Made by a program: the position numbers and the translations under genes
The notes under the pieces: generated by a model
Told to the model about the DNA's origin: nothing
What the model saw: only the letters and a program-made list of their open reading frames with translations
Database searches by the model: none
From: Hormiphora californensis
Taxonomy: Eukaryota > Animalia > Ctenophora
NCBI GenBank assembly: GCA_020137815.1
Contig: CM035358.1
Location: 3,286,001-3,350,000, forward strand
DNA: 64,000 bases
Direction: 5' to 3'
Shown: positions 10,675-58,913 of the stretch, one piece after another
Layout of the letters: each line of letters starts with the position of its first letter
How positions within the stretch are numbered: the first letter of the stretch is position 1

Positions 10675-18961
<8,287 letters not shown>

Positions 18962-19925
18962 GTTTTCAGTGTGTCAGTTACTAAGTGTGAGCTCCCCCTC
19001 TCTCTCCGTCCTGCTTTTAAAACCCCATCACATGGGAATCCACCACCCCCTGATTCTGCCCCCTCCTAGATCACATTCCAGCCCCCTTCAATCGGCTATT
19101 TCATCGTGGGGGCGTGGTTCCGAGGTGGGATTCTCGTGTGATTAAAAACACGTCGATTTCTCAAGTGCTATTAAGTTGAATAACAACAACTCTAGCTGCG
19201 ATAACTCCATTTGGGGCGTGATCTTCATTACACATTACACAACAATTCTCCAGCTTGTATAACAATTAGATCTATCTCTCTGTGGAGGTGGAGCTTTGTT
19301 ATGTTCTAACCCTCCTTTACAGGTTCGAGCAAGGCAAGTGGAGCTAGTTCGCTTCTGTATTTCTAGTTTGTATCTTCCTGAAAGTAATGAGTGAATGAAA
19401 CTGAAACCATTCGGCATCGTAAATGGGCGGGATTGTGAGAAAATCATCAATAACCACAATTTAAAACTGAGTTAACTAATAAAATAAATTTAGTTACAAC
19501 AAATTGGTAGGCACAAAAAGGGCACACAAATATTGAATATTGTCACCCAAGAACAGCTAAAACACTTTCAGTTCTCCCTAACATCTTTCTTACTCTAGAA
19601 CTCTCTAGTCTTCTATTCCTCATAAAATGTAGTTTCAACAATTACTGACAGTTAAAATGTCAAAGATTTCGTCGTCACAATTATGTCATGTTCAATTTAC
19701 AAGAAAACATTTATATCAGCTTTGAGGGCAGCCTCTACACTTTACTGTCTCTTCTTGTCTCTTTACCATCATTCCATATTTCCTAAACTCCATGAAATGA
19801 ATTATGTCGTTCAAGAAACTGGCAATTCTAAAAAATCCTGCTTATTCCCAACAGGCAGCTCTAGAATATCCTTCCTGTTCTCTCAAGAAAATCCAGGGTG
19901 CATCATTGTCCTTTGCTGTCTCTTT

Positions 19926-21635
19926 CTATTCTTTACAGATATCATCATCACTCCTTGTATCAAGGGATGCCAGCACGACACTAGCACTATACTTGCTGTT
20001 AATGGAAGTATTGGACATCACTGACTCGCCCATACCACTCTGGTGATCGCTCATAGCAACCCCTGAATCTCCCTCATTAGGCAGTCCACCATTGGCGAGG
20101 GCTGGTGTGCTCTTACTCAAATCCTTCCCCTCCTTCTTACTCTTTCCTGTCAGCTTCGCTTTGAACTTCTTGAACCTGAACTTCTTCTTCTTCTTCCCTC
20201 CATCAAGAGAGGTGGTAGAGGTAGCGGGGAAGGCAGAGAGGTTGTTAGTCGAGCCAGAATAGTTATCATCTCCGTCTGAGAACACAGCACTCTCACTGAT
20301 TAGAGGGGCTGGTTGGGGCGTTGGGGGTGGCATGGCGGCTGCTGTGTTAGGTGTTGTAGGGTTGGTGAGGAGGATCATTGGCACTGCTGAGGCGTGATCC
20401 TCCTTAGTAACCACCTCATCCTCCCTAGTAACCACTGCATCCTCCCTAGCAACCACCTCATCCTCCTTAGCAACCACCTCATCCTCCCTAGTAACCACAT
20501 CATCCTCCCTAGTAACCACATCATCCTCCTTAGCAACCACCTGATCCTCCCTAGCAACCACATTCTCAGCCACTCTGTTGACCTCCTCATCTTCTGGTGT
20601 CATGGGTGGAGCAGTTGGTTGTTCTACTGCTACAGGTTCTACTGCTGCTGCAGGTATCTCAGGTTCTAACACCTGTTCCACAATGACAGCAGCAGCAGGT
20701 TCAGTAATGACAGGTTCAACAGCAGCAGGTTTGACAGGTTCCACAGCAGCAGCAGGTTCAACCTGCCTCTCAGGTTCTTCTGTCACTATGACAACGGGAG
20801 GTATAGGTGTGACAACATCCTGTATCACACTAGGTACTGGTGTATCAATATCCCCCTCATCTAGTTCAGGTTCACTTCCTACTACTAAACTAGCAGGAGG
20901 TTCCGGTTCTAAGTCCTGCAACTGTGCCACTCTATCATCAGCTGCTATCACTGTTTCAGGAGTCTCTGATAGACTGACCCCAGTAGATGATACAACTGAT
21001 TCTGAAGCAAGGTGTCCTTCCAGATCATTCAGGACTGCCTCCTCATCAAGTTGGGTAGAGTACTGACTGGCCAGATCACTCCATTTAGCTTGTTCTACAA
21101 CCGAGCTAGTGTCGTCTATTGGGGCTGATAGGGAACCATAACCCTGATCCGCTTCATTCACCCCCTGGATCGGGCTTCCTTCCTGTGGGGAAATATTGGG
21201 GATTAGGATTTTTATCTTTTGATAAGTTTAAAAATAGCGCAAGTACAGCTGGGAGACCCATTATACCGTATTGGGAGGATATGAAAATATGAAAACTGAA
21301 CTTTTCTTGATTAGAACAAGGTAACTACTTGTCTCGCCGGCTATAATAAGAGGGGCTAGCAGCCAGTTGTTAGCGAGAGGGGAAGGGCAGGGGCTCTGGA
21401 GAGGAGAACATGAATGGTATGGGGAGGCGAGAGAGGGGAGGGTAGGGCTGGAGAAGAAAGGATGGCAGGATAGGATGGGAGAGAAAAAATGAACAGATCA
21501 GGGGTTATCGATCTTCTAGAAACATACCGCTTCACACTCCTCCCCAACATCTTTATCTCCGTTGAAGGTGGGACGTCTGAAGCAGCACAACGTGTAGAGA
21601 CACGGTGAGAATGAGAGGATTGAATCTGTTGCCAT
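19926..21635 (-). CDS. Acidic, Pro/Glu/Ala-rich disordered protein with N-terminal Cys cluster (LCCFRR), 7-aa VV(A/T)(R/K)ED(E/D) repeats and a MARCKS-like basic domain (2 exons, ~454 aa)
   Basis: Exon 21635-21528 (MATDSILSFSPCLYTLCCFRRPTFNGDKDVGEECEA|gtatgt) splices in phase 0 to 21182-19926 (cag|EGSPIQG...). The basic stretch KKKKKFRFKKFKAKLTGKSKK is at ~20132-20195. Confidence 0.8.
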
Positions 21636-21873
21636 GGTGACGTCACTGTTTACATAATGATGGGGCAGCTGCTGGTGAGAGGGGGATTTTGATTAAACTT
21701 GGGGGGTTTATTGATCCAAATAGAGATGGAGGAGAGATTGTTGGCAAACACATTTGGCAGGGCAATGAATGGGATTGTTGTGACACATTCTGACAAAGGA
21801 AGGGAGAAACATAGCAGCATGAACAACAGAGAATATAATAATGGGCATACTGAGAGATGGAAGGAGGGAGAGA

Positions 21874-22627: not shown

Positions 22628-24487
22628 CCACTACACGCACCACTCCCGCATGGGGCCGTAAGGTCCCATGCGTGAGCAGGGTTAAATCCCCCGAGCCCGG
22701 ATCCTGTTGGATCTGAGGGCCCGGAGGGCCTGCGGAGTAAAGGTAGGTAGAACAATGTACATAGGGGTAAGTTGAACAATGTACATATGGGTTAAAGTAA
22801 GGGAAAAACATTTAAAGGGGAGTTAAAGCTCATGGTGGCGGAGCATAAGACCTCCTAAGCTATCTGGAAAGAAGCCCAACCTTCTGGAACGGAGCCTAAG
22901 AAGAGACAACTTATCAGGAACTGAAGAAGCAAACCGTCTGAATCTAGGGAAATCTAGGGGCAAGCAGGAACGGGTATAAAGGGTAAAAAGAAGAAATGAC
23001 AATAATAGGGGGGACAGCTCGGGAGGTATATTACATGTCGAGAACTTTCCGGAGCGTGTTCATCGAGTTAAAGAGGACTGACTTTTGAAGCTGTGAAGGG
23101 TAAATTTGGCGGGTTATAGCAGTCAGGTACTTCTCCAGTCGGGGGCTGACTCCGCCAAGAGCTCCAATCACGATAGGGATGACCGTGGCCTTTTTAAGAT
23201 CCCAAATTCGTGTGAGCTCCCTCCGTAGTTCTTGGTACTTCTCGATCTTCTCCATCTCCCTGTCCGAGACTGACCTGTCCTTTGGTACAGCGACATCGAT
23301 CAGAAGCGCTTCCTTCTTTAGTTTGTCTAGAAGGACCAAGTCAGGTTTACATGCCTCGATGGGGTTATCCGTCTGAATGTGGAAATCCCAGAGGATCTTG
23401 CAGTTCTCATTCTCGAGCACTTTCTCTGCATAGTGGCTCCACCACTTTGATTCAGTAGGAAATCCGTGGTCCTTGCATATTCCCCAGTGCAGGGCAGCAG
23501 CTACTCGATCGTGTCGGAGTTTATAGTCTCCGTTGGCAAGTTTCGTGCATCCGTTTAGGATGTGTTCCACCGACTCGTTGTATTGGTTACAGATCCGGCA
23601 CTTCTCAGTCACTTCATTCTCTTTCTGTATGGCAGCTCTCAACCAGTTCGTGCGAATGGCTTGATCCTGGGCAGCAAAGACATCGGCTTCGGTGTATCTG
23701 CTGAGGCTCTCTTTGTTGAGCCAGGCCCAGGTCGCGTCAGGGTCGCATCCCCCTTCTTCAAGTTGCTTCAGGAATCTTCCATGTAAGACTTTGTTTTTCC
23801 ATTTCTCTATAAGTTCCGTCTGTAGTCTTTCCTTCAGGGCTTCTGCGTCTTCTGGAGGTCCAGTTAGCATATCTTCAGACTGCATCGCCGTGTGGAGGGC
23901 ACGGATCTTGGGGTCCGTGGAATTGGTGAAGAATGTCACGAGTCCTGTCTCTTCCTTCACAATGACATCTTCAATCCGTTGGAGACCCCTTCCTCCCAGT
24001 TTCCTGCTAACATACAGCCGGTCAATGTCACTGTTGCTCTTGATGACTCCTCTTCTCAGGATCTTCCTAGTCATCATGTCTAGTCCACTGGCTTCGGAAG
24101 TGGACCAGTCCAGTATTCCGGCACCGTAACGGATCACAGGTATTGCCCATGTGTTGATTGCTGTGATGAGGTTCTTGCCTTGCAGGCTCGAGGAGAGTAG
24201 TTTCTTGACTCTTCGGGTGTATTCGGCTTTGACCTTAGCTTTCATTTCTTGATGAAGAATACGGTCAACCTCCAGGATGCCGAGGTACTTATAGCCTCCA
24301 TCTTCCACCTCGGGTATTCTGTCTCCACTTGGTAGGCTTATTCCCTGCATCCGACTTCTGACTCCGTCCACAATGTCTAGAGCTCCGCACTTGGATAGAC
24401 CAAAGGACATGTTGATGTCAGTGCTAAACTTCTCAGTGACTGCTAAGAGCTGCTGAAGGTCCTCTTTTGAGCTGGCGTACAGCTTAA

Positions 24488-25790
24488 GGGTACACCTGGC
24501 GTTTTTCATCATCGAGTGCCCAACCAAATGACTTCACCAGGGCTTAGTTCATACAAAATGGACCTCAAATATGCAATTTTAGCCCTAAAGTCGAATTCAT
24601 ATTTTTGCTACAGCCTATTTTCAAAGTGGCGTTTTTTCAATTTTTGTCGGAATTTTTAACCTCAGGACCACTTTTTTTGAGATAGAAACATTAAATTCTT
24701 GGAATTTGAAGAGAATATAAAGGTGAATAAGCCCAAAGAAGGATTTTTGAAATGGAGCTTATTTCTGGCCATGAGAACGGTTTACTTTTTTGCTTCTTTG
24801 ACACGCTGGCTGAGAATGTTCCCATGCTTCATTAGAGATGAAAATCTGGAAATAGTTGCTCAAAACGATTATCTATGTGGCCCAAAAATTTTGGAACTTT
24901 CCCGCCAAAGATGTGGTGTACAGAGCTTGTTTTGTGAAACCCGTCTTTTTTAAAAAGAGGGATATTCCCTGTATCTCAAAAACGGATGATCGTAGAGACC
25001 TGCGACCAAGCTTAATCGATTCAGAAGGTCCGATTTTGGGGGGGTCTTCTGAGATACATTTTGCTCCTACTCCAACCGTTTTTGCTAAAATTGCAAAAAA
25101 CCAATTCTATGAAAAGGGGGAACAACTCTAATCCAGTAGCCTGCTTCGGGCTGATTTCCCCCTTACTTGCTGATACCTTTTTCGCAATTACAGCAAAAAC
25201 GGTTGGAGTAGGAGCAAAATGTCTCTCAGAAGACCCCCCCAAAATCGGACCTTCTGAATCGATTAAGCTTGGTCGCAGGTCTCTACGATCATCCGTTTTT
25301 GAGATACAGGGAATTTCCCTCTTTTTCAAAAAGACGGGTTTCACAAAACAAGCTCTGTAAACCACATCTTTGGCGGGAAAGTTCCAAAATTTTTGGGCCA
25401 CATAGATAATCGTTTTGAGCAACTATTTCCAGATTTTCATCTCTAATGAAGCATGGGAACATTCTCAGCCAGCGTGTCAAAGAAGCAAAAAAGTAAACCG
25501 TTCTCATGGCCAGAAATAAGCTCCATTTCAAAAATCCTTCTTTGGGCTTATTCACCTTTATATTCCCTTCAAATTCCAAGAATTTAATGTTTCTATCTCA
25601 AAAAAAGTGGTCCTGAGGTTAAAAATTCCGACAAAAATTGAAAAAACGCCACTTTGAAAATAGGCTGTAGCAAAAATATGAATTCGACTTCAAGGCTAAA
25701 ATTGCATATTTGAGGTCCATTTTGTATGAACTAAACCCTGGTGAAGTCATTTGGTTGGGCACTCGATGATGAAAAACGCCAGGTGTACCC
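24488..25790. mobile_element. Palindromic non-autonomous DNA transposon with TTAA TSD and GG..CC ends (Kolobok-like)
   Basis: Near-perfect inverted arms of ~600 bp (GGGTACACCTGGCG...CGCCAGGTGTACCC) around an ~80-bp spacer. TTAA at 24484-24487 and 25791-25794. RR..YY termini with TTAA fit Kolobok better than piggyBac (CC..GG). Confidence 0.88.
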
Positions 25791-25873
25791 TTAAGATCGT
25801 CCATGTATAGGCGGTGGTTAATACTAATATCTGGATCTGGAGCTACTGGGTTAGATATGGTGTAGCCTCTTCC

Positions 25874-26416
25874 TTGGCCACATTGATGCCTGAGTGAGAT
25901 CGAGGTCGCGCAGCGACCGAGATCGATCTCACATCTAGGCCTCCGGCGCGTTATTGATTTTAGAGCAAACTTTTTCAAAGACCTGGCTGCAAGGAACTAC
26001 TGAACCGATTTGCATCTCGTTTGTTGCTCCTGGCAGATAATTGTCTCTATTTTTACGGAAAATACCCGCGAATTTCAGCATTTGAGGAATAGTGGGTCAA
26101 AATTGACACGAAACATGAGCAATTCTTTAAAGACCTGGCTGCAAGCTCCTACTCGGTCCTGGGACAATCTGCGGGTACTGGGGGAATCGTCATGGCCTTG
26201 TGAGTATGGGAAAATACCCGCCGATTCATCACGATGCGAAATGAGACCACAATTTACCTTTGAGTAGTGCTAGGTCAGCTAAAAAGGTCTCCAAAAACGG
26301 TCTATCACGCGCGATTTGTTGAAAACGTGCTTTATTTCGCGCGCACGTGAGTTCTTGCTCTCAACGGACCGGGATCCTATTATTCGCGGAGCGAGAATAG
26401 GATGCGATGGATCCAA
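25874..26416 (+). mobile_element. Composite non-autonomous element: a 101-bp TTGG..CCAA element carrying a 440-bp TA-duplicating element (25938-26377)
   Basis: TSD GCCTCTTCC at 25865-25873 and 26417-26425. Comparison with the empty 101-bp copy at 62072-62172 shows the inner piece sits at a duplicated TA (25936-37 / 26378-79). Its imperfect TIRs are GGCCTCCGGCGCGTT / AACGGACCGGGATCC. Confidence 0.88.
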
Positions 26417-29149
26417 GCCTCTTCCTTGGGCAGCTAGGAGCATGGACAGGGGGATCAGGCCTATAATAAAGTGAATAGGGGAGACGGAGTCTCCTTGGAA
26501 GAGGCCTCTCTTGATGTGTATTTTACCTAAGTCTGACCCAGATTGGACGATGTTGACAATACACTGCTGGAATGATGACTCGAATAGTCGGATTATCTGA
26601 GGGTTTATCCCGCACATCTCCATTGACTTAAGGATCCAGGAGTGGGGGATCGAGTCGTATGCCTTCTGGTAGTCTATGAAAGCCATATACAAGGAAGACT
26701 TTGAGCGTTTGCAATGACGTAGGATAAGTTTGTCAATTGCTAGTTGTTCTTTACATCCTCGACTCTTTTTGCGGCACCCCTTCTGCTCTTCCGGAAAGAG
26801 CCCGTTTACATCGAGGTGCTGGTAGATGTCTTCTGATAATATTCCTGTATACAGCTTCCAGAGGTTCGGAAGGCAGGTTATGGTCTAAAGTTCCCCGGGT
26901 TTGACATACCCTTCTTGGGGTCTTTAATCAGGAGGAAGGTCCTGCCTTCAGTCATCCATGCCGGGACTTGACTCGTAAGTGAGACTTTCATTGAGTAGCT
27001 CAGCTATCCGACCATGGAGGCAAGTCGTGTGTTTAATCCTAGAAGGCGTGGAGACCATCTATACACTGGGGTTGACCAGTTGGTCATTCCTTTCACCCGA
27101 GCTGCAACTCTTTCCGTGGTGATCTGAAACTCTTTCCTGTTGGCTGACTGTTCAAAGTTCTCCTGGGCTCCGTCTAAACCATTCTGCTTCAGTGTTTATG
27201 ACCAGCCTCGTTTTCCCAGATATTTTTCCAGAAGTTAAGCGTCCTGGTCTCGGTCTTCTGGAGTACAATCGAGTGGCGTGGGTCCGATCCACGTTTCTCA
27301 CAGTTTCCGGTAAAAGTTTCTTGGTTGTTCCTGGAACCGTTGTTGTCAACGAATGTCTGCCTGCTTCTTCTTGTATCTCTTAATCTTTCCGGCCTTCGCT
27401 AGCAGTCTCTGCTTCACTTCTCTATACTTGTTTATAGCCCTTCTTGGGCAGCACGGGGTTATCTTCTATAGATAAATCTATAGTTTGGAAACTTGTGGGT
27501 GGCTCCTCTGCTCATTTCGGTCAGCCTGGAGAGGTCTAGGAGCGAAGCTTGGCGACACTCTCTTCGAGTCGTCGCAGCCACATAGGTTGTTTATTCCTTC
27601 TGGGGGTGTGGTTGGTGGGTTCGCTTGGTGCCTTAACGCCCATCTGTTCTCGACTCGACCACAATGGGCTACGGCCATCAGCTAGCGTGTTCAGTTGCGG
27701 TAAGGTTCTGGAGTTTCAAGGACTTATTACCGGGCGAGTCGGGTCAATTGCCACTCGTAGTTTCCCCCAGGGGACCTGTCTCAGGTCGGTGACTTTGATA
27801 GAGCTTGGTTCCTCAGTAGTTTCTTGAACTGCTCCCTGATTTCCGGGTTCGGTGATGGCCCTTCCTCTTCCACTGGGGTTGTGGGGGGTTCATGGTTTCT
27901 GGGGGTGGGTTTGTCCTCTACCAAGCCTGTCGTGCCGATTCAACTGCTTCACGGTCGGCTACGGCCGCTGTTCTGATTTCCATCAGCTTCTGTGGTGAAG
28001 GAGTCCCGACTGGTTATATACTCCGGTTGGGATCTAAGCTGGTCATCAGTCTTGGAAGGGTAGGTTGTCTTTGACCACCTTTCCTCCACTCGGTTCCATA
28101 CTCCTCTTTTGTCAGGTTGTGAGTACGAGTGGATGAACACGAGCGTAATGTTCATTTCTGTGGTCCATTTCGTTCGTGGCGCTCTAGTTGGGGGTGGTGG
28201 TGGGGGATCGGCGGTGTCCCCATTTGCCGAGGTACTCGGACCCGCAGTGTTATCATTCACCGTGAGATCCACTTCCGGGAGTATATTTAGGCCAGATGCT
28301 GCTAGCCCTGCTAGCATTCGCTGATCAGCCATCTCCTGCGGTGTTACCATGTGTCCAGATTTCTCTATTGATCTGAACTGGCTTGAGAGTTTGGCCTTTT
28401 ATGTGGTGTCGTGTCCTTGTCGATTCCCATAGCCGTGTCGAGCCTCTTCCAGGATCCGGATGATCCTGGGTTGCCTGCTGTGTAGCAGTAACCCCAAGTC
28501 TATGTTCTCTTGCTTGAACCAGGAACCTTCCTTGGTTTACGGTGTTTAGTACTCATGTCCGAATAAGATGAGTAGTTTTTTGGGGTGAGTTTCAAACCAA
28601 TCACTGTGTATACATAAGTCCCAATCGGTTTGGTTAGAAGAAGAGCCGGTTTGGGGGGTCTTAACACTGCCACCCGTTTTGGGCACAGCGGTAACGGCAT
28701 CCCACCGCCACATTTGAGATCCGTTCGTGGATGTTTTACTTATACCCGGCCATCCGTGCAGCTTTTCAGCACGAACCGACACTTTTCGCGTACGGTGTGT
28801 ACTTATGTCTATAATGGTGGATCTGGAACGGGGACATATATATGTGAAGCATGATCTTAACTGGATGGGGTAAAAACAGGGAGGGAAAGACCAAAAAAGA
28901 GGAAAAATAAATGATCGGCAAGGGGAGAAAAAAGAAGAAAGGTAGGCGAACGAATGGGTGGAGGAGAGAAAGAGATAGAAATCGAGAAACAAGAGAAGAA
29001 AAATAAGAGGGAATTCGGCAGTAGTCTCTAGACAACAAAAGAAAAACGCAAAGAGAAGATGGACAGCGAAAAAGGCCAAAAAAAGATAGTAGTATGACAC
29101 TAGGGGATGGGTTGAGGGACCAGGCAAACTAAATCCTCCCAGGAACAGT

Positions 29150-47093: not shown

Positions 47094-48536
47094 TTAGGTA
47101 TGGTCCATGGGTTGTATTGCCGGTATCTTATCCCCAGATCCACCCTCCGCTGAGGGTGATAACTCAGGTTTCAAACTTCCCGACATACTGATAGATCCAC
47201 CTCGAGTACACGACCTCCGTAACCTCCTTCTGTAACCACCATTCTGAAACTCCTTAACACTATCAGGTCTAACTGTCCAATAATGGCCCTTCCCGCTCTC
47301 CGCTCTCCCTGCCTTCATGAAGCAATCGTTCAAGGAGAGATTGTGTCTGATACTGTTCCTCCATCCCTGCCCCTCTAACCGGTAGTAGGGGTATTTATCC
47401 ATGATAAACCGATAAATGTCCCCGAGTAGGAGCCTCTTTGTGTCTGAGTTTAGGATGGCCATAGCGATCATAGCGGGGTAGGAGATGGTGGGTTTCTTGA
47501 AGTTGTTACGTTGTGATGGTGGCAGCGTGTTTGTGTTACTGGACAACACGTCCTCTAGCTCCAGGGCTAGTTTATCTTTAGCACCTGAGGGAGGGGGTTG
47601 GAAATAAATAAATTTAGCACCTGAGAAATGGGTGGGTTGAAAATAAACATATTAGTAGTATTATTCAGCCTTGAGAGTTCAGGATATCAAACTTATTGTC
47701 AGTACTTGAAATCAGAATAGCAAATATTATATCTTACCACCGAATGTTATGATAGCATCATCATTAGACCCGCCTCCCCCTCCATCCCCTCTCCTAGCCT
47801 CCTCCTCAGCCCGTCCCATAGCCCCCAATTCCAACTGGTTAGTCAGTAGAGTGATCTGGGTCGAACTAAGCCCCTGGAGTATCTCAGCTCCATTCAACTC
47901 CCCATCAGCACTAATCTTCTGCAACTTCTCCAATATATCCTCCGCTGATAGACTCCCTGTTGTATCCTGTTTATCCTGATCTCCCACCACGATTTGCTGG
48001 TGTGTGGGTGACACTGCAGTGGTTGGGGGAGTGATGTTGAGGATCTCGCTGGATATCTGGAGGACATCATTCAGCTCGTTGGTGTACTCAGAAAATGAAG
48101 CAATGATAGATGACGGTGAGGTGGTTGTGGGGACTGTGGTTGTTGTGACTGGAGGTGATGTTGTGTGTTGTACAGTGGGTGGTGGTGGTGGTGGTGGTGA
48201 TGGTTCCGGTGGTTTTGGGACGGTGTAGTTTGGTGACAAGTTGATTATCTGAGCTTGTTGCTGTTGCTCCTGTTTCTGGATTTCCTTCATTTGGGCTTGT
48301 TGTGCTTTGTGTATTTGTCGTTGCATGGTGCTGGGCCGTTTTGTTCTACCCTTAGGAGGAGGGTCCGCTGCTGCTGTGTTCAGAGAGGATGGGTTGGGGT
48401 GGAGGTTGTTTGAGTAGAGTTGGAGGAGAGATTCACCCAGGGCTTGGGATGATAAGTCAGGGAGGTCCGTGCATTTTGGAGCTGAGGGAAGAGGGGGTTG
48501 TGTTGGCACGTTATTGTCATTGCGCTGCTTTGTCAT
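47094..48536 (-). CDS. FoxQ2: Forkhead transcription factor, FoxQ2-like (2 exons, ~429 aa)
   Basis: Exons 48536-47738 and 47584-47094 (phase 1). Forkhead domain KPTISYPAMIAMAILNS..LLLGDIYRFIM..WRNSIRHNLSLNDCFMKAGRAESGKGHYW..F.NGGYRRR. The KAGR..GKGHYW and G.(F/Y)RRR motifs are FoxQ2-type. Confidence 0.8.
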
Positions 48537-48909
48537 CGTTGGTTGTCAGTTTCAGCAGTCCTCATTTGTCAGTTGTTGTCGATATTTTGGGCAGTTTGCC
48601 TGTAGTTTGTCATATTTCCTATCTCTCTCTCTCCCTGTCAAATGTCAATGTCCCCTCTGTCCAGTCAGGTCCATCAGTCAGGTACCTCTATTCCAATTAT
48701 TAAAGATAACATCTGCAGTTCTGACAGTGTTACTACAGGCAGTTAGTAATGTTCTAAGGTTGTCAGAGGGCAACACTGCTTGATGTGTATCCAGAATGGC
48801 CTCCTCAAGTAGGCTTGCGTGAGGCTTAAAACCATCATAGTACAGCTGACTGTAGGGGGAGAGGGTTGTAAGGAATTGGGGTCACTATTGGTATATCGGA
48901 GTAGTAAGA

Positions 48910-49048
48910 AGGGAACAGGGTTAAGATTGATTGGTGGGGGGCAGCGAACAGGGTTAAGATTGATTGGGGGCAGCGAACAGGGTTAAGATTGATTGGGGAC
49001 CGGGCAGTGAACAGGGTTAAGATTGATTGGGGGGGGGGGACAGCGAAC
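48910..49048. repeat. ~29-35-bp tandem repeat (GAACAGGGTTAAGATTGATTGG..) x4
   Basis: Read directly. It lies upstream of the Fox coding region. Confidence 0.85.
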
Positions 49049-49866
49049 CTGATAATAAGCTGATAAAGAAACTGCTTTTCACTTGCTGCCGTCATCTCTC
49101 ATTGAAGAGCTAAAACACAGCGATAATATTAGTATGGGGAACATATCCCAATGTGCAATAACGAAAGCAGCAAAACCCTTATAAAAGTTACTGGGCATCA
49201 ATACGATGGAGAAGGAAAGAAAGGAATGTATGAATGTTGCAACAACAATCACAAAACAATCCCCCTACTGCTGCATTGTAACTTGACCCGTGTCACAGTA
49301 TTCTCTTTGTCTCTTGACTCCCTCTCTCTCTCACTCCTTTTCGTTTGAGGGTTTTTTTTGGTTCGATTTTAAAATTTTTTTTTGTTCACTGCCAAATGGT
49401 TTTATGGGTTTTTTTCATTCAATCTTTTTTTTTTTAAAACCTTTCCTTTTCTAATTTTAAAGACCCCCCCTTTTTTAAATGTTTTTACCAAACCCCCCAA
49501 AAAAAAAAATAAAGAAAAAAAGTTGAGGGGAAGTAAAAAAACATTTTGTACCGCAAAATGTAATTAAAACTTAAAAAAGGGATTCCCAAAAAAAGGGAAA
49601 AAGGGGGGGAAAAAGGGAAAAAAGGGGGGAAAAAAAGGGGGGAAAAAAAGGGAAAAGAAAAAAAAGGAAAAAAGGGGAAAAGGGGGAAAAAAAAGATTTT
49701 TTGGGGGGGGGAAAAAAAAAGGGGGAAAAAAAGGAAAGGAAAGGGGGAAAGGGGGAAAGGGGGGAAAAGGAAAAAAATTTAGTTTAAAAAGGGGGGAAAA
49801 AATCGAAGGGGGAACAAAAGGAAAAACAGTTTTTGGGGGGGGCCCCCCCCCCGGGGGGGGGGGGGG

Positions 49867-49918
<52 letters not shown>

Positions 49919-50272
49919 CCCCCCAACCCCAAAAAAAAAAAATTAAAAAAATTTTTTAAAAAAAAAAAAAAAGGGGGAACCCCGGGGGTTTTAAAAAAAA
50001 TAAGATATGAGAGAGAGAGAGAGAGAGAATAACCAGAAGCACCCGCCAAACAGAACCCGTACACGCACTCCTTCTCCCTCACACTGAACAGTGAACACTC
50101 CCGATTTCTTTACCTTGATCTTGTGCAATGCAATATATATCTCTCTTCCCTCCTCTCTCTCTTCTCTGAGGTAAAACAAAGAAAGTAAACTAGGAAATCC
50201 ATAGAAAGCTAGTACTAATGGAGAGAGATCAGGAGGAGAGAGAGAAGAGAGAGAGGGAGAGAGAGAGAGAGT

Positions 50273-50315
<43 letters not shown>

Positions 50316-51003
50316 AAAAGAGACATTTTGTACTAGATGGATGCTTGTGAAATGGACAGAAAAAGTAAAAGGTTGTTTCTTTGAATGAAACAAATAATTA
50401 AAAAAAATGTGTTGGACTTTTTTACGTCAGGTAGATAGATAGAGGGAGAAAAAGGAAAGCGAAAGAGAAAGAAAAGGTAATTATAGAGAGGGTGAGAATA
50501 CTCTATTCACGTGTAAGATACAAGGTGGTATATCTCGTGTAACTAATTGGTCCAATCAACTTTTACACCCACACTGCACTGTTTTAGCACACCTGTAGTT
50601 TCCATGCAAAATAACTGAAGCAAATTTGGAGATAAGTTTGATCAGCCAAAACAAACTGACAGCAGTAGGAAAGATAATACACGTTGTTCTCCTTTCTATC
50701 GGTTAACCTGCCACAGAGTCATACAGGAACCTAAAGAGTGGTTGAGAGGTTAGAGGGTGGTTAGAGGGGGGTTAAGGGACAGGGTGAGAGGTTTGAGGGA
50801 GGGTGGGAGGAAAGGGGGACAGGGTGAAACGAATTGGTGGGTTTAAGAAAAGGAAATCAATAAAACAACTCAACACTTTGTATATTTCTTTTTTTTCTCT
50901 TTTTTTATCGTTAAAAATTGAGGAAAACATGTCAGATAACATCACTGCAAATACAGTCTCTCCCACTCCCATCAAAATGTTCATTCAACACCCATTCAGA
51001 GTT

Positions 51004-52797
51004 TTAGGCACTCAGGAAAAAGTTGGCAGGGATCTGTCCTGCATTTTTCATCTCAGCAAACTTTGCCAGAGCCTGATTATAGTCTCCTTGAGCGGCGGTT
51101 AGAAGCTGAATACAAGCCTCTCTGGTCATCTTGGTTGCAGCTCCCACCCTACCAATTAGTGCCTCTTGTTCGGGAGTGTATCCAGGGGTAGGAGCGGCAA
51201 CTCCACTTGTCGAGGGTGCGGCAGTACCAGGAACTGATTCGATCTTCTTGATAAGATCATTGTCAGTCCTAATAACCGATAACTGGTCGTTAGTGATGAG
51301 ATAGGAGCTGGTCTCAGGAACCGGACACAGTATGAAGGTACGGGAGAAGGACCGATATTCTGTGTTACAATCCATCACACCGGTCAGGACAGCTGTAACA
51401 AAGTTATCCTCCAGAGTCGAGGTATCAATACACAGAGAGTGGGAAATGTGTTTTGTATCTCCCATCTCATTCACCTCACTGACGACCTTGTCTCGACCAA
51501 CAATCAGCCGGGATTCCCTCAGTTCAGCCTTTGTGACATGTCTGAAATTCCTGTTTTTCTTGCTCAGCTCCAGCGGCATTTTGATTGGGAATTTTGGTTT
51601 TCCCTCATTACCAGACCGAGTCCTCCAGGAACATGCGATGAGAGAAAAGACATTTCTCGTGGTATGCATGGACTAGATTCGCCCTGTTTCCCTTCCCTGC
51701 ATCGTGTATCTCAATGTACTTGAGGAAGAACCTCTCAAGGGCTTGTCGAGGCAGTGAATCCAGTAGGATGGTTGATTGTTTTGTGGCGGGTAACTTCACC
51801 TCATCTTCCTCGTCTTCAAAGGTAATCTTCTCAGGAAGGGGTAGATCATCCAGGTGGATTAGTTTGGGGAAGAGGCGTCGGATACCTGCTATGTACTTAG
51901 CTTCCTCCATCAACTTCTTCGCAGGGTTCTCTTCAGTGACAGGTGAGTGAGGTTAGGACAGTTTTCTGACAGGGCCTTCAGGTCACTTTCAGAGTTCATC
52001 ACGTTGTACTCGAACGAAACCCGGGTTACATTCTTTGCAGCTGATAGGATGGATCTGATACAACCAGTGTGTTTCAACATGTTTCTAGAGAAATCTATCT
52101 CCTCCAGACTATCGGCACACTTCTCTTTGATCAGCTCTCCGATAACATTAGATATGACAAACAGTTGGGCCCGGATACCAATGAGATCCTTATCTCTGTT
52201 GAACTCAGATAGGTCGAGTTTTTTATCCACCACACTGTATCGGCCCTCCAGAACAGTGCAAATCTTTGCTTTTAGTTCATCCCCTGATAGTTCAGACTCC
52301 GGTCCTTGACTTGGTCTGGCGAAAAGGTTGATCGTGTGGTCTTTTAGTGTGAGTTTTCCGGACTGCTTCATTATCGCATCTTTAGCACGGTGATTCTTGA
52401 CCCAGAAAACCAGTTTGTTCTTTTCCAGCTTGATATTCTTGGGATCGATATTCTCGTTAGTTGTCTGATCGAGCATTCGGAAGAAATGGGTTTGGTCGAA
52501 CTTTTGAGCATCGTGTACAACTATCTTCCACCAAGCCGAATTGTTCCCAAACTTCCCCTTGTTCCCTCCAGGACGACGATGGTAGCCGGGGTTGTATCGG
52601 GGTCTGCTCTGGTAACCTGAGGGTCCTCCACCTCCCATATCAGCATCACCATCTCTATCCGTGTTACCTCCTCGCATACTCCTGTTCCGCTGAACTTGTT
52701 TAGGATTTGAACTGGGCCATGACTTTCTGTTCCCCCCGTTTCCCCCAGCTGGAGCACCAAGTCTGTTCTTGTCGAATCCTGGACGGTCTGAATACAT
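51004..52797 (-). CDS. NXF1: Nuclear RNA export factor 1 (TAP): RG-rich N-terminus, RRM, LRR, NTF2-like and UBA domains; intronless, two apparent frameshifts
   Basis: Three consecutive ORFs give WWKIVV (RRM), LDLSEF..EEIDFSRN (LRR), IRRLFPKLIHLD, AYH..FS, RSFSRTF..ITNDQL (NTF2) and TKMT..L....DYNQAL..F....QIP (TAP-C). Single indels near 51930 and 51640 are probably consensus errors. Confidence 0.9.
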
Positions 52798-52804
52798 GTT
52801 TCCT

Positions 52805-53648
52805 GGAACAAAGTGAGTTTTATGTTAGTCTCATATCAATTAAACAGTTAAAAACGAAAGAAGTTGCTGGCTGTTTTGAAGTGCTCGGTTGCTCACAGCT
52901 CAACGAACGAGTTTTTTGCAATAAATGTGATTCAAGTCATAAAATTATTGACGTGTGAAGATCTACTCATACTCATGACAAATTCAGGCAACAGAATAGC
53001 CTGAGACGGCGGTCTTTGAGGTTCTCGGGCGGGGGACAAGAAAAATTTAAAAATTTAAAAGTTTCGAGAAAAAAAAACAACGCAGGTTTTTGGTTCAAAA
53101 AGCTCTTTTGGCGTGCGCTGCAATCTCTAAGTGCGCGCGTTTCATTGCGCGTGCAGCTTTTGACAAAAAACGAGTTTCCAAATTTTGCGTTTTACACACC
53201 AGTTAAAGTGCGTTTCAAACGACTTGACCTGGGATTCCTGGAAATTCAGGATTTCCCCTTTGTAAATACACGCGCGATGCGCCGAATTCCAAGAATTACG
53301 GGTCAAGTCGCTTGAAACGGACTTTACACCAGCGTCCCCCTGATATCAGGGGGACGCTCCCTGATATCAGGGCACGGCGCGTTCCTGCATGCCCGGCCAT
53401 CATGTGCAGATGGTTCTGTGGGAACCATGTGACACTGCTGCGCGTGACGTAAATTGTATGGAAAGTGGAGCTAACGCGCACGTCAGCACTCACTTGCTTG
53501 CCGACCTTGGCAACTGCCGAGCGTGGGAACTGATGCCTGGGAATCTCTAACTGGTGCCTTAAAAAAAACTTTTTTACAGTTAACGATTTTTGCCGTTTTG
53601 TCTTTTGCTGCACTTAATTCTCATAAACAGCTAATTCTGGACTATTTT
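52805..53648. promoter_or_regulatory. Putative bidirectional promoter between NXF1 and LRGUK
   Basis: The start codons are head-to-head and ~860 bp apart, and the region is CpG-rich. It has twin palindromes CCCTGATATCAGGG (~53338, 53359) and an RFX-like half site CCTTGGCAAC at 53505-53514. Confidence 0.5.
53204..53326. mobile_element. 123-bp MITE-like element
   Basis: 26-bp TIRs TAAAGTGCGTTTCAAACGACTTGACC / GGTCAAGTCGCTTGAAACGGACTTTA (24/26). Flanks CACCAGT / CACCAGC may be a 7-bp TSD. Confidence 0.65.
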
Positions 53649-53654
53649 AGGACG

Positions 53655-55547
53655 ATGGCTGAAGACTCTGACCAAGATAGTGACATTTCCACGGATTCCT
53701 TGCAAAATGAGCCCGGTGAATTGACCGAGAAAGTCGTTGGAAAATGTCTCTCGAATCGGGGGTACTCTGCAGACGGAACAATGCTCGTTTACTTAGATCT
53801 TTGTTTAGAGAACAAAAGTCTTACCAACGTAGCACTACTGGAAAACTACCGATTTATCCAGAATCTTGATCTGTCTAACAACAAGCTCCGAAACATCAGT
53901 GTAATTTCAAACCTCAAATACCTTCTCAACCTCAATGCCTCTAACAACCAACTTCAGTCTCTTCCCTGTTTGGAACACCCATTCAACCTCCTCTCAGCAA
54001 ACTTTTCCTACAACAACATCCACGACATAGGAATGATTGGTCAGGTCCCCAGTCTTCTCACTCTAAACCTAGATAGCAACCAGATTCAACATATTCATGG
54101 GCTGGACGGTTGCTCTAGTTTAAAGGAGCTCAGTTTAAATCACAACAAAATCTCCACAATCACAGGACTGGACCGGCTTCATTTGCACGTTCTTCACTTG
54201 AACAACAATAATATTGTCAAGATCACCGGGCTAGATGAGTTAGGAAAACTCCAATCCCTTCATCTCGCTTACAACAGTATCCGTTCTCTACGGGGCCTCT
54301 CTGGTAAAATGGTCCTGTCTGAGTTACGTCTGGAAGGAAATGACATCATTGACCTACTTGAGATTAAACAACTCCAGAGTACACCACTCCTTCGTCGCCT
54401 CACTCTAACTGGTAACCCGCTAACCTGTCTCCCGGACTACCGATCCCATCTCCTGTTCTACCTCCGCCAGTTGTCGCATCTTGACGAGTGCAGGATCCTC
54501 CCTGAAGAGAAGATAGCCGCGGTGAACAAGTTCGAGCCTCCACTGGAAGTTATAGCCGCCCAGAACCATGTCATGCACCTTGTTAAGAACCTGGTTCACC
54601 CCATCCACATTAAGGCGAGTGTGATCAGCGACCAAACTACTGTGTACCCCGTTCTCGTCCTCACCGGACCCCACGGGAGTGGCAAGAACGAGTTAGCTAA
54701 GCGGCTAGTCGCACAGTCCGGGCAGACATTCCGGCTGATCAAGTTGTACTCTACAAAGAAGGTGAGCGAGATGGATCAGTCTCTAATTCCAGTATCACGT
54801 GATCAATACGAAGATATGACGTCATCGGGACAGTTCATTGCTTCCTACGAGGTCGGATCTGTTAGTTATGCTGTTAGTGGAGAACACATTGAGCAAGCTG
54901 CGGCTGATGGGGTGGCATGTGTGATCTGCTGTGAGTTGGAGGGAGTGTTGTCTCTAAAGAGAACTGCATACCAACCCCGCGTGGTCCTTCTCTCTCCCCT
55001 GGATACCGTCAAACACGAGGAGAGGATGAGGGTGAGGGAGAGGTACACCGAACCCCAGATCTCCTTGTCTCTAAAACGTACCGAGATGTACAACAAATAC
55101 CACTCTGATCACCATGGATTGTTTGATCTGGCTATCAACAGCTCAGATGTCGACCAGGCATTCACCAAACTAATCCAACTAGTCGAGTACTACTCCGGTC
55201 AAAGATCTGGTGTTGGACCGGGCCAGTCTGAGGTTATCAAATCAGCCCCAGAACTATCCTTCCGACAATGGAGCTGCGGGTCAATGTCATCTTTTGAGAA
55301 CCAGGCACGATTCCCAAACAAGGAGTCCGTTGTTAAGAGTGCTGTGAAGGGTGTCACTCATCCAGTTACACCAGCCCAGCGTGCTGCATCTCGCAGTTCC
55401 TCCTCCTATGTGTATCCAGATACAGGGGATTTGTCTTGTCTGAGTAACACGGAGTTCTCTTCCTCGACTGAGTTGTCTGCCACTGCCAGGTCGCTAGTTC
55501 AACTGAGGAATGTGGCCGTACCTCCCCTCACTCACCGCACCATGTGA
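53655..55547 (+). CDS. LRGUK: Leucine-rich repeat and guanylate kinase domain protein, intronless
   Basis: SDS22-like LRRs (LDLSNNKL, LSLNHNKISTITGL), an LRRcap (NPL..LPDYR..L..LD), then a GK domain (LVLTGPHGSGK). The likely start MAEDSD at 53655 follows a ttttag acceptor. Confidence 0.9.
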   Translation: MAEDSDQDSDISTDSLQNEPGELTEKVVGKCLSNRGYSADGTMLVYLDLCLENKSLTNVALLENYRFIQNLDLSNNKLRNISVISNLKYLLNLNASNNQLQSLPCLEHPFNLLSANFSYNNIHDIGMIGQVPSLLTLNLDSNQIQHIHGLDGCSSLKELSLNHNKISTITGLDRLHLHVLHLNNNNIVKITGLDELGKLQSLHLAYNSIRSLRGLSGKMVLSELRLEGNDIIDLLEIKQLQSTPLLRRLTLTGNPLTCLPDYRSHLLFYLRQLSHLDECRILPEEKIAAVNKFEPPLEVIAAQNHVMHLVKNLVHPIHIKASVISDQTTVYPVLVLTGPHGSGKNELAKRLVAQSGQTFRLIKLYSTKKVSEMDQSLIPVSRDQYEDMTSSGQFIASYEVGSVSYAVSGEHIEQAAADGVACVICCELEGVLSLKRTAYQPRVVLLSPLDTVKHEERMRVRERYTEPQISLSLKRTEMYNKYHSDHHGLFDLAINSSDVDQAFTKLIQLVEYYSGQRSGVGPGQSEVIKSAPELSFRQWSCGSMSSFENQARFPNKESVVKSAVKGVTHPVTPAQRAASRSSSSYVYPDTGDLSCLSNTEFSSSTELSATARSLVQLRNVAVPPLTHRTM

Positions 55548-55882
55548 TTTTAGAAGAACTTATTAGCTGAGGGTGGATCGAGGGTCGAAGAAAAGGACTG
55601 AGAAATAGAAAAGAGAGTGGATAGAGATAAGATCAGACAGTTTGAAATTGGACCATGCGGTGTCACTGAGTGTGTAAATAAACTGTAAACATGTTTATAA
55701 CAAGTGAACTTTTATTAAAATGATCAGATTTATTCCATTATTCTCTGTCTACACTCTACATCATTATATATTATTACCCACTTAACCTCTCTTCTAGGAT
55801 CCCATCTCTTACCTACTGTATTTCATCTTCCCAAACTAATATTATCCCCTCCACTCCCCTCTAGGTAGAACAAAATGTCAGT

Positions 55883-57334
55883 ATGGCACTCAGTACTCTA
55901 AGGCTACGTGAGACTCAGCTCTCCCACTCCCGACAGCTCCCCAAACCAGCCCGACCCTCACCTCAAGACCTCAATGAGGTACTTTCACTCAGTCGAAACC
56001 TCCGGACTCTAAAAGTCTCGGAGGCCCCGGACTTCTTCTCAAAGAAACCCGTTCTACCACAAATATCACCTGGTATCAAATTCACGGATGTTGATACCCC
56101 CGTTCTCGATGCAGAGCTGGAGAGTGTTTGTGCGGCTGTGGATGAGAGCAGTATCATTCGATTCCTCCAGAAGTCCCAGATCAAGTTGAATGTTCTGGTA
56201 CACTGGTGGTGGGATGATATCAACTCTCTCCAGTTTCTAAACTGGTGGTTTACCAAGTTCTCCTATGAAATGCGATGTGATTGGTTTAAATTGGAGTGCA
56301 GTATCCTGTTGGAGGAGATATCTGCTGTGATCAAGACAACTGTGCCCAACAGGAAGGTTATGGAATTCCTACTAAAAATCCTCCATGAGCACCCTGATCA
56401 GTTTTGTGATGAGGACGAGGGTTCCTGTCTACCCAACATGATTGAGGTCCTGGTTTCTAATGATAAGAACAGATATTGTGCACTTCTCTCTGACGTAAAG
56501 ATGAAAAGTGCTAAACAGGAACGGATCCTAGCTCTCAGAAGTCATTTTATCATCAGTTTGTGTTATGCAGCGATCAAGTTCTACAAGAAGCTACAGACAG
56601 AGGGTGTTCATGACAAGACACGGCCGGTATCACGTGGAGGCCGTGTGACGTCAGCCTCTCTAACGCGTGAGCCGTCACGCGTGATGACCGCTGGAATGAT
56701 GATGATGAGCAGAGAAAGGACAATTGATATTCCCGTGATTAGTCCCGCTGGTTCACGTCCCACTACTGCACAGAATACAGCACGACTAGAACAGCACAAC
56801 ATTAAACGTGCGTTTGATTGTGTGAGTTGCGGGTACGGTGTAGTACTTGGCTACCTTTTTGAACAGGGACACATAACAACAGAGATATGCGATGATCAGG
56901 GAAGAAGTCTGGTGTTTGTAGCAGTACTGCACAAGCAACACTCCATTCTAAATAATCTGATTGAAGCAGGGGCTAATGTTGACCAAGTTGCTGACAATGG
57001 AAATACTCCACTTCATGTAGCTGCCTCTGCTGGCAACTCAATAGCTCTGAATATCCTATTAAAGGGTGGTGCTGACCCACGGCTTTTCAATCCTGAGAGC
57101 AATGGAGCAACTCCTCTTCACCTAGCGGTGCTGAGTGACAGTTTGGACTGTGTTGTGTTGTTGTTGGGGGGAGGAGCGGACCCACTTTCCAAGATGGGCT
57201 GTCCGGCGGACACTAGCGTGGTAGACCTTGCCCAGCAGCTTGGGAACAGTGACATTGTGAGACTGTTGATCGGGGCCATGCCTGTCCGTCCTGATAGTGC
57301 ATTGTGTACCGAGGGAGGGTATAGTATGGAGTGA
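55883..57334 (+). CDS. Uncharacterised protein with C-terminal ankyrin repeats (483 aa), intronless
   Basis: Ankyrin motifs GRSLVFVAV, NGNTPLHVAAS..GADP and NGATPLHLAV..GADP. I do not recognise the N-terminal region. Confidence 0.85.
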   Translation: MALSTLRLRETQLSHSRQLPKPARPSPQDLNEVLSLSRNLRTLKVSEAPDFFSKKPVLPQISPGIKFTDVDTPVLDAELESVCAAVDESSIIRFLQKSQIKLNVLVHWWWDDINSLQFLNWWFTKFSYEMRCDWFKLECSILLEEISAVIKTTVPNRKVMEFLLKILHEHPDQFCDEDEGSCLPNMIEVLVSNDKNRYCALLSDVKMKSAKQERILALRSHFIISLCYAAIKFYKKLQTEGVHDKTRPVSRGGRVTSASLTREPSRVMTAGMMMMSRERTIDIPVISPAGSRPTTAQNTARLEQHNIKRAFDCVSCGYGVVLGYLFEQGHITTEICDDQGRSLVFVAVLHKQHSILNNLIEAGANVDQVADNGNTPLHVAASAGNSIALNILLKGGADPRLFNPESNGATPLHLAVLSDSLDCVVLLLGGGADPLSKMGCPADTSVVDLAQQLGNSDIVRLLIGAMPVRPDSALCTEGGYSME

Positions 57335-57667
57335 GAGAGAGAGGCTGGATCTCTCTATTGAATGTCAGGGGAACTATGTTATGATATTGCTTGTTACTGG
57401 AGTGTTGTTGGGAAAATATTACTCGCTGTGTTTTTTGTTGTGCTGTGTGCCGTTCTACTCTATTGAGCAACTTTTTGTAACGCGCGAGTGTTGTACTGTG
57501 ATCTCCCTCGCGCGCCTTTACACCCCGTTGCCCCAGTAACCCTGCCTTCAGTGTGTGTAATATTTTCTCTGTCTCTGCTCCCAATTAAATCCCGGGGCCT
57601 CCCCTATTTCCTTCCTGTTCCCCTACCCCATTAGCCACTAATTAAACCCCTCCCCTCTCTATTAGTC

Positions 57668-58913
57668 ATGAATGTGGAACTGTACGGCAAGATCAAGGAC
57701 CATGATTTCCATATGGTGAAGCTGGCCCTGGATACTATTGACAGGGACCACACTGGAGCCCTTGCCTCCAACGTTCACAGCCTCACTGATACAGACTGGG
57801 AATCCTTCCTCGACAAAACTAAAAATGAGTTTAGGGGAGAAATGTGGGGCTTCAAATGTGGCTCAATGACCTTTGTGGATGGGCAGTTGATTGGAAATGG
57901 GGATGACTTTATGCGATGGGCAAAGGAGAAGTTTGGACTGATCGATTTCCGGCCACCCGCATTCTACGAGGGTCTATCAAACCAGGCCTACAAATCATAT
58001 CTTGAGAACCCTGATAGAGATGTGGTATATGTTGACTTGGTGCACGATAAATCCCCCATGGGCCGAATGATATTTGAGTTGTACCGAGATATCGTCCCTG
58101 ATACCGTCGGTAACTTTGTGAAACTACTGACAGCCAAATCAGAGAAGAAATACATTGGATCTCTCCTGCACAGGATTGTGAAGAGCGGATGGGTACAAGG
58201 TAAATATCAAATATCTCTCTTTTACTTCAACCCACTTTGAGTGAAATGCAGCTAATAACAACACAGCAATATCTAGATTGGTAATTAGTTCGGTACCACA
58301 AACAACCTCCATCTCAACACTAAACATCTTGCAGGTGGTGACATAGTAAATGGTAGTGGTGGTAACTCAGACTCAGCAGCCGGAGGAAAATTCCCTGACG
58401 AGAACTTTGCCATTAAACACGATCGGGCAGGAATTATAGGCATGGCTAATGATGGTAGGTATCTCATTCTATTTCTACATTTCTCTCCCACTCCTTTCTC
58501 TCTTCCCCTCACCCCCCCCCCCCACCCCCCCCCCCTCACCATTAGAGCACTCTAAACCCCATCTCCCCATTCCTCCAGCCCCCCATCTAACCCCCATCTC
58601 CCCATTCCTCCAGTCCCCATCTAACCCCCATCTCCCCATTCTTCCAGCCCCCCATCTAACCCCCATCTCACCCTTCCTCCCGGCCCCCTCTAACCCCCAT
58701 CTCCCCCTTCCTCCAGGTCCCCACACGAACGGCTCACAGTTCTACATCACATTTGGTCCCGCCCCCTGGATGGATCACACCTATGTAGCGTTTGGTTGTC
58801 TTATCGAGGGACAGCACATTCTGAGGGACTTGGAAAACATTGAAACAGTGAACGAGCGACCTAAGAGGCCCCTAACGGTCCATGATTGTGGGCTGCTAAA
58901 AGATGCCTTGTGA
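57668..58913 (+). CDS. PPIL6: Cyclophilin-like PPIL6 (radial spoke RSP12-like), 3 exons
   Basis: Exons 57668-58199, 58335-58454, 58717-58913. A thioredoxin-like N-terminus is followed by a cyclophilin domain (HRIVKSGWVQGGD, FPDENF, MANDGPHTNGSQFYIT, WMD..YVAFG..IEG). Confidence 0.88.
58549..58716 (+). repeat. ~33-35-bp tandem repeat of the intron 3' end (CTAAC..pyrimidine tract..CCAG) x5 in PPIL6 intron 2
   Basis: Unit ccccatctaacccccatctccccattcctccag. The last copy supplies the in-frame acceptor. Confidence 0.9.

Follow-up and report, generated by a model that had tools for sequence, protein, structure and literature searches.

Does a ctenophore genome encode a protein that joins the palmitoylated N-terminus of GAP43 to the basic effector domain of MARCKS? 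This was proposed in a preliminary description of a gene in a 64,000-nucleotide stretch of Hormiphora californensis DNA (contig CM035358.1; hereafter the window), where the product was read as a deeply diverged homologue or motif hybrid of the two vertebrate proteins, or as a convergent counterpart. The position (19926–21635), minus strand, length of 454 aa, composition, N-terminal CLYTLCCFRR and single basic-aromatic island were all found to be as described there. We asked whether the gene is used, what it is related to, and which functions its motifs can bear.

Structure and transcription of the gene

The gene was found to be real, spliced and transcribed. It consists of two coding exons separated by one intron on the minus strand and has a product of 454 aa (Table 1). 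The RNA sample comprised contigs of seven public runs of bulk environmental RNA (denoted X with a number); parts of the gene were covered by six of the seven runs, from four studies, and exon 1 by one of the seven (X2). The predicted exon 1–2 junction was spanned by a single oligo-dT contig of X2, in which exactly 345 nt were skipped with CT..AC borders on the plus strand, the shorter side of the contig being 71 letters. A gene model of Pleurobrachia bachei (P0001; sb/3479689, EukProt EP00116_P019427) independently joins the same two exons, and use of exon 1 is thus supported both by this contig and by the model.

According to the list of open reading frames, a stop codon lies in frame 5′ of the ATG. 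Upstream of the main ATG, the 5′ UTR carries an out-of-frame ORF and an ATG-stop. The upstream ORF (21643–21753, minus strand) ends 8 nt 5′ of the main ATG; the X2 contig has a 1-nt insertion that would shift it, so that it is probably not conserved. Neither AATAAA nor ATTAAA was present in 18901–19925.

Table 1. Features of the 454-aa gene and of its neighbour, with window coordinates
Feature	Position	Strand	Support
5′ UTR, at least this length	21636..21757	-	X2 RNA contig starts at 21757
Exon 1, coding, 36 aa, Ala2	21635-21528	-	36/36 identical in P0001
Predicted S-acylation anchor: Cys12, Cys17/Cys18 amid hydrophobic residues, Arg20-Arg21	21573..21602	-	sequence
Intron, 345 nt, phase 0, GT..AG	21527-21183	-	skipped by one X2 RNA contig
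Exon 2, coding, 418 aa and stop	21182-19926	-	pieces under RNA contigs of 6/7 runs
Acidic block, aa 37-118, with YGSL and WSDL motifs; weakly predicted helix at about aa 61-100	20937..21182	-	79/82 identical in P0001
Variable E/P/V/A-rich linker, aa 119-243	20562..20936	-	aa 119-235: 84/123 columns identical in P0001; RNA contigs with in-frame insertions
Eight tandem 21-nt / 7-aa repeats VVx[RK]EDx, aa 244-299, number variable	20394..20561	-	sequence, RNA contig, P0001
Basic-aromatic island, aa 366-386	20133..20195	-	21/21 identical in P0001
C-terminal tail, aa 408-454, opening with DSGxxxS kept in both sequences	19929..20069	-	alignment with P0001
3′ UTR, at least this length	19622..19925	-	RNA contigs of X1, X3, X5, X6
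Neighbour gene, first six exons, signal peptide and C-type-lectin-like domain	17233..18961	-	five introns bridged by RNA contigs; WIGL and QPD in translation

The lectin-type gene that had been placed about 1 kb downstream on the same strand was found there, with its start codon 965 nt beyond the stop codon of the 454-aa gene. It runs on below 17233 to at least 12140, and Pfam Lectin_C matched weakly (E 0.12) in one of four pieces. None of the listed RNA contigs bridges the two genes, RNA gaps between genes proving nothing, and adjacency is what is left of the neural or secretory gene pair suggested before.

Farther down in the lectin-like gene, apparent exons of a further lectin-type domain were seen amid long simple repeats, and the introns at 12280–13880 and 14370–15360 contain large foldback-like inverted-repeat inserts around simple-repeat cores. 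A 123-nt X7 contig with a depth of about 2240 matches 58 nt of an exon of this gene (17900–17957) at less than 90% and possibly derives from a paralogue or repeat. On the other side of the 454-aa gene, reverse-transcriptase ORF pieces of a non-LTR retrotransposon (23031–24533 and 25619–26884, minus strand; Pfam gave only a weak zf-RVT match) are split by an inverted-repeat insert at about 24490–25990, perhaps a non-autonomous element nested there; both element types are tentative readings of the sequence. A dense run of intron-poor conserved genes occupies 47097–58237 (forkhead, NXF1/TAP export factor, LRR-guanylate kinase, ankyrin/FAM220-like and cyclophilin-like), within which the NXF1 coding sequence (51007–52824) extends across three overlapping reading frames, pointing to small introns or frameshifts.

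Relatives of the predicted protein

P0001 was the sole full-length relative among 1.84 billion representatives. It is identical in 376 of 460 columns, has the same exon 1, the same patch and the same end, and is unannotated; we take it to be the orthologue. The non-bilaterian origin suspected earlier from the DNA alone thus agrees with a ctenophore as the only source of a relative, which would place the window in Pleurobrachia or a close cydippid. A full HMMER search of the 1.84 billion representatives gave eight matches at E ≤ 0.001, namely P0001, six weak matches from unrelated organisms centred on the repeat array, and an unnamed 364-aa protein (P0004); vertebrate matches were absent. P0004, which matches aa 338–391 with 29.6 bits per repeat over four repeats, was rejected as summed chance. 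It has a signal-like N-terminus, its four repeats may resemble the ribosomal L7/L12 C-terminal domain, and it is unrelated to the 454-aa protein.

Word-index searches with exon 2 and with aa 1–100 and 325–438 of P0001, covering near lengths only in 5.8 billion clusters, returned P0001 alone. Sequence searches of PDB gave no match for the basic patch or for P0001, the ESM Atlas no usable match for P0001, and the JGI metagenomes 589 pattern matches with no relative among them. In Pfam, no MARCKS, Neuromodulin or BASP1 match was obtained at E up to 10 with P0001 and five pieces, and no MARCKS family match at E up to 0.1 with both window exons; weak matches to dehydrin, SR-25 and Soc were rejected as composition. 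A literature search found nothing on the gene, on 3479689 together with Pleurobrachia, or of relevance on ctenophores together with MARCKS; a supplement of the Pleurobrachia genome paper may annotate the model. Within the libraries searched, the gene ranks as an orphan of roughly genus level, known so far from Pleurobrachia-type ctenophores only.

Two constrained end blocks and a variable middle

The protein has a calculated pI of 4.15, a net charge of −53 and a mass of 48 kDa, and is rich in V (11.9%), E (10.8%), A (10.1%), S (9.5%), P (8.6%) and D (8.4%), with only nine aromatic residues (F/W/Y) outside aa 1–25 and the basic patch. It is likely to be disordered. FoldIndex, however, scored only 53% of the chain as disordered (values below 0); the structure model had a mean pLDDT of 41, a pTM of 0.15 and no confident part, and since it was built on a two-sequence alignment its low pLDDT is weak evidence of disorder. 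Weak helices were modelled at about aa 61–100 (pLDDT block means of about 46–62), in the heptad array and in the tail. No convincing signal peptide or transmembrane segment was detected by scanning the 454-aa sequence, of which the top 19-residue hydropathy window (1.44) is proline-rich.

Besides the identities to P0001 given in Table 1, 41 of 64 positions were identical in the repeats, 64 of 66 in aa 300–365, 23 of 24 in aa 387–410 and 28 of 44 in the tail. The linker, with 84 of 110 aligned positions identical, differs from the invariant exon 1 (p 0.0003). A similar division was seen among 29 listed coding variants of the RNA contigs, which were synonymous in 12 of 13 cases in aa 300–454 and in 3 of 16 in aa 119–299; this tally covers the variants among the rows listed, with 19 further rows outside it, and is inflated within the repeat array, where units may misalign. 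Taken together, the block identities and the variant pattern suggest constraint on both long end blocks, between which the middle would be a free spacer.

The preliminary description had overlooked the eight tandem 7-aa repeats (aa 244–299) in this middle part. Their number varies, with eight units in the window protein, six in P0001 and five in an X1 contig that is without 63 nt of the array. This gap was rejected as a splice, as its ends are AT..TC and its length equals three repeat units. The array was modelled as one long low-confidence helix. Similar heptads were found by the HMMER search in unrelated proteins from a fungus, a snail and an archaeon and in unnamed records, and a Pfam match to the grass antifreeze roll (E 0.0009, below the cut-off) was rejected as composition.

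The tail of P0001 is odd. Its last 44 residues (aa 395–438) show 16 differences from the window version (19929–20060), and 15 of these are the residue found in P0001's own aa 42–85, interleaved 1–3 residues at a time (p 0.0008). At least two base changes are needed for 11 of the 16, compared with 8 of 40 differences elsewhere. Contigs overlapping the tail, from five runs of four studies, match the window version, and all five of their listed variants are synonymous; a P0001-like tail might escape placement. Ordinary drift and DNA conversion do not yield such a pattern (44 of 123 bases are alike in register). An old duplication of the N-terminal part at the C-terminus is unsupported in the window protein alone, where the likeness amounts to 10 of 41 residues and was reached by 126 of 1000 shuffles. 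Either the record is faulty at the P0001 tail, or a genuine N/C repeat has changed unusually fast; nothing below rests on this pattern. The DSGxxxS at the opening of the tail corresponds to a degron pattern of the beta-TrCP type.

The cysteine motif and the basic patch

CLYTLCCFRR occupies aa 12–21. Among 200,000 random N-termini, 57 had a CC with two basic residues after it, a pattern picked post hoc, and the pair with its two arginines is therefore probably under selection. Cysteine pairs flanked by hydrophobic and basic residues are a general S-acylation signal. Residue 2 is alanine, so there is no Gly2 myristoylation site.

The patch (aa 366–386) contains 13 K/R, three F and no D/E. None of 2000 shuffles of the whole protein produced a 21-residue window as strongly charged (net +13), the best giving 8. 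That the PKC serines of the MARCKS core are largely missing was noted from the start; the central serines are indeed absent, but T381 and S384, at the distal end of the patch, fit the PKC consensus [ST]-x-[KR], which occurs nowhere else in the protein, PKC-type sites being trivially likely beside lysines. By a score of the basic-hydrophobic (BH) type, computed with provisional scale values, the patch peaks at 1.35, the MARCKS peptide at 1.19 and five other window ORFs at 0.49–0.74, the threshold being 0.6 (PMC6960411). The cited passages of that source describe BH sites as binding by charge density, independently of sequence, and as potential lipid sites only, which may bind proteins instead.

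Both motifs were thus found in the other ctenophore, that is, in one relative. A special conservation of the motifs was not borne out, since the patch, identical in 21 of 21 positions, is not better conserved than its flanks (87 of 89).

What the protein may do

The motifs can be read together as those of a cytosolic, S-acylated, membrane-tethered acidic chain, the patch of which would grip an acidic lipid such as PIP2 reversibly and be loosened by calmodulin or phosphorylation. We consider this the most likely reading, at somewhat less than even confidence. With no signal peptide or transmembrane segment the protein would be cytosolic; S-acylation of Cys17 and Cys18, and possibly of Cys12, would keep the N-terminus on the inner side of the cell membrane; and the patch, 348 residues from this anchor, would associate with acidic lipid through its charge and insert its three Phe. 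Ca2+/calmodulin or phosphorylation of T381 and S384, which would lower the net charge over aa 366–390 from +12 to about +8, may loosen it. This switch would be weaker than that of MARCKS because the phosphosites lie at the edge of the patch. The variable linker and heptad array would act as a spacer, and the conserved acidic blocks would bind partners. Against the tether speaks that the conserved acidic sequence, some 230 residues in all (aa 1–118 and 300–410), exceeds what tethering to lipid would require, so that the chief role may be the binding of protein partners; that the patch, known from one relative only, is no more conserved than its flanks; and that it fits a nuclear localization signal (NLS) equally well.

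The same acidic blocks lead to the alternative of a disordered scaffold, in which aa 37–118, aa 300–365 and the tail bind proteins by way of short motifs, and the patch binds actin, microtubules or something acidic, be it a partner or other parts of the same chain, instead of lipid. The near-identity of the blocks (79 of 82 and 64 of 66), the weak helices predicted at aa 61–100 and in the tail, the YGSL, WSDL and DSGxxxS patterns and the capacity of basic-hydrophobic sites to bind proteins (PMC6960411, in the passages cited) are consistent with it. However, short motifs of this kind are expected by chance in 454 residues, the invariant N-terminal CC and RR would be left unexplained, and a scaffold is compatible with the membrane tether rather than exclusive of it. 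We consider a scaffold unlikely, though a serious contender.

Rather more doubtful is a nuclear acidic protein with cysteines that are not acylated, in which the patch would be an NLS or a nucleic-acid binder. The patch does fit the monopartite pattern K[KR]x[KR], at 366, 367, 369 and 374, the chain is large, acidic and probably disordered, and according to the cited part of PMC4607481 the effector domain of MARCKS also acts as an NLS. The three Phe among the lysines and the length of 21 residues would nevertheless go beyond what an NLS needs, and the cysteine motif is invariant in P0001.

The protein could also be a structural component of a ctenophore-specific organelle or cortex, for example of colloblasts, tentacle or cilia-bearing cells, with heptads that polymerise or form a helix and with the anchors secondary. 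The eight VVx[RK]EDx repeats, modelled as a long helix of low confidence, and the restriction of the gene to the genus point in this direction, but the repeat number varies (8, 6, 5), the listed variants of the array are mostly non-synonymous, and similar heptads occur in the unrelated fungal, snail, archaeal and unnamed proteins. We regard this as very unlikely.

That the protein truly descends from GAP43 and MARCKS, as a deeply diverged homologue or a fusion, is hardly credible. The patch did align with the MARCKS effector domain (sequence from the cited part of PMC4607481) with a local score of 49, which 128 of 5000 full shuffles also attained, but 561 of 5000 shuffles reached it with the five leading lysines kept, no Pfam MARCKS, Neuromodulin or BASP1 match was found at E up to 10 and no vertebrate match among the 1.84 billion representatives, Gly2 and an IQ motif are missing, and GAP43 and MARCKS are described as unrelated in sequence to each other. 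By sequence comparison the likeness of the patch to the effector domain appears to be mostly composition, the homologue reading seems largely refuted already, and the label of a GAP43/MARCKS hybrid looks like an over-reading.

To return to the membrane tether, a more specific claim would be that ctenophores independently invented a PIP2/calmodulin buffer, palmitoylated and disordered, with a role in shaping the cortex of neurons or other cells that bear processes. One regulatory device would then have had separate origins in ctenophores and vertebrates; we hold this to be distinctly unlikely. If acylation and PIP2/calmodulin switching were true, above all in neurons, the gene would offer a case of molecular convergence for the debate on a separate origin of the ctenophore nervous system; for the present it is an orphan at genus level, unannotated and made of generic motifs.

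Comparison with known systems

In the cited passages, GAP43, MARCKS and BASP1 are mutually unrelated by sequence; what unites them is their acidity, their acylation and a single basic effector domain (PMC6478813, PMC2175130). The layout resembles this GMC class (GAP43, MARCKS, CAP23/BASP1) in the sense of a class of properties and not of sequence. The features shared with the class as described there are an acidic pI, a sequence of low complexity, a single stretch that is exclusively basic, an N-terminal site plausible for acylation and Ser/Thr in a PKC-type context inside the basic stretch. The pI of 4.15 is close to the 4.46–4.64 given for the three proteins (PMC6478813), and a single window of +13 stands in a chain of net charge −53. 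The differences are the lack of sequence homology, the size (about 48 kDa compared with 23–32 kDa), the 348 residues between anchor and patch, and the tandem heptad array. The class is further characterised by intrinsic disorder, attachment to membranes by fatty acylation, a basic domain that binds PIP2, calmodulin and actin and is phosphorylated by PKC, and abundance in nerve endings.

With MARCKS and MARCKSL1 the patch shares a start of five lysines, 13 K/R and interspersed Phe, but it has three Phe where MARCKS has five and two Ser/Thr at its edge where MARCKS has four Ser through the core. MARCKS is further marked by Gly2 myristoylation among the features described in the cited text (PMC5964646), whereas the 454-aa protein has no Gly2 and no Pfam MARCKS match, the family profile comprising MH2 and the effector domain. 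The adjacent cysteine pair followed by two arginines is shared with GAP43, in which the cited passage gives the palmitoylated Cys3/4, Arg6/7 and Lys9 (PMC4214776); here the cysteines lie at 17/18. GAP43 also carries an IQ motif and Ser41 (PMC4214776, PMC7494789, in the parts cited), whereas the 454-aa protein contains no [IVL]Qxxx[RK], no Neuromodulin/IQ Pfam match and no equivalent of that Ser41. BASP1/CAP23 has an N-myristoylated Gly2 with an adjacent basic domain; here residue 2 is Ala and the patch lies at 366–386.

Patches of the MARCKS type that bind PIP2 are described in the cited passages for adducin/Drosophila Hts, outside vertebrates (PMC4265757), and, as basic domains outside MARCKS, for DGK-zeta and AKAP12 (PMC4607481). 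Adducin/Hts, DGK-zeta and AKAP12 carry folded domains or other signatures, and none was matched in the Pfam, PDB and HMMER searches. Plant PCaP1 may be a further analogue. The motif is not vertebrate-only, as the PIP2-binding domain of Drosophila Hts shows, and since patches of this type already work outside vertebrates, meeting one in a ctenophore is less surprising. Binding by charge density, independent of sequence, makes convergence easy, and the likeness to GAP43 and MARCKS probably reflects convergence on generic motifs rather than descent.
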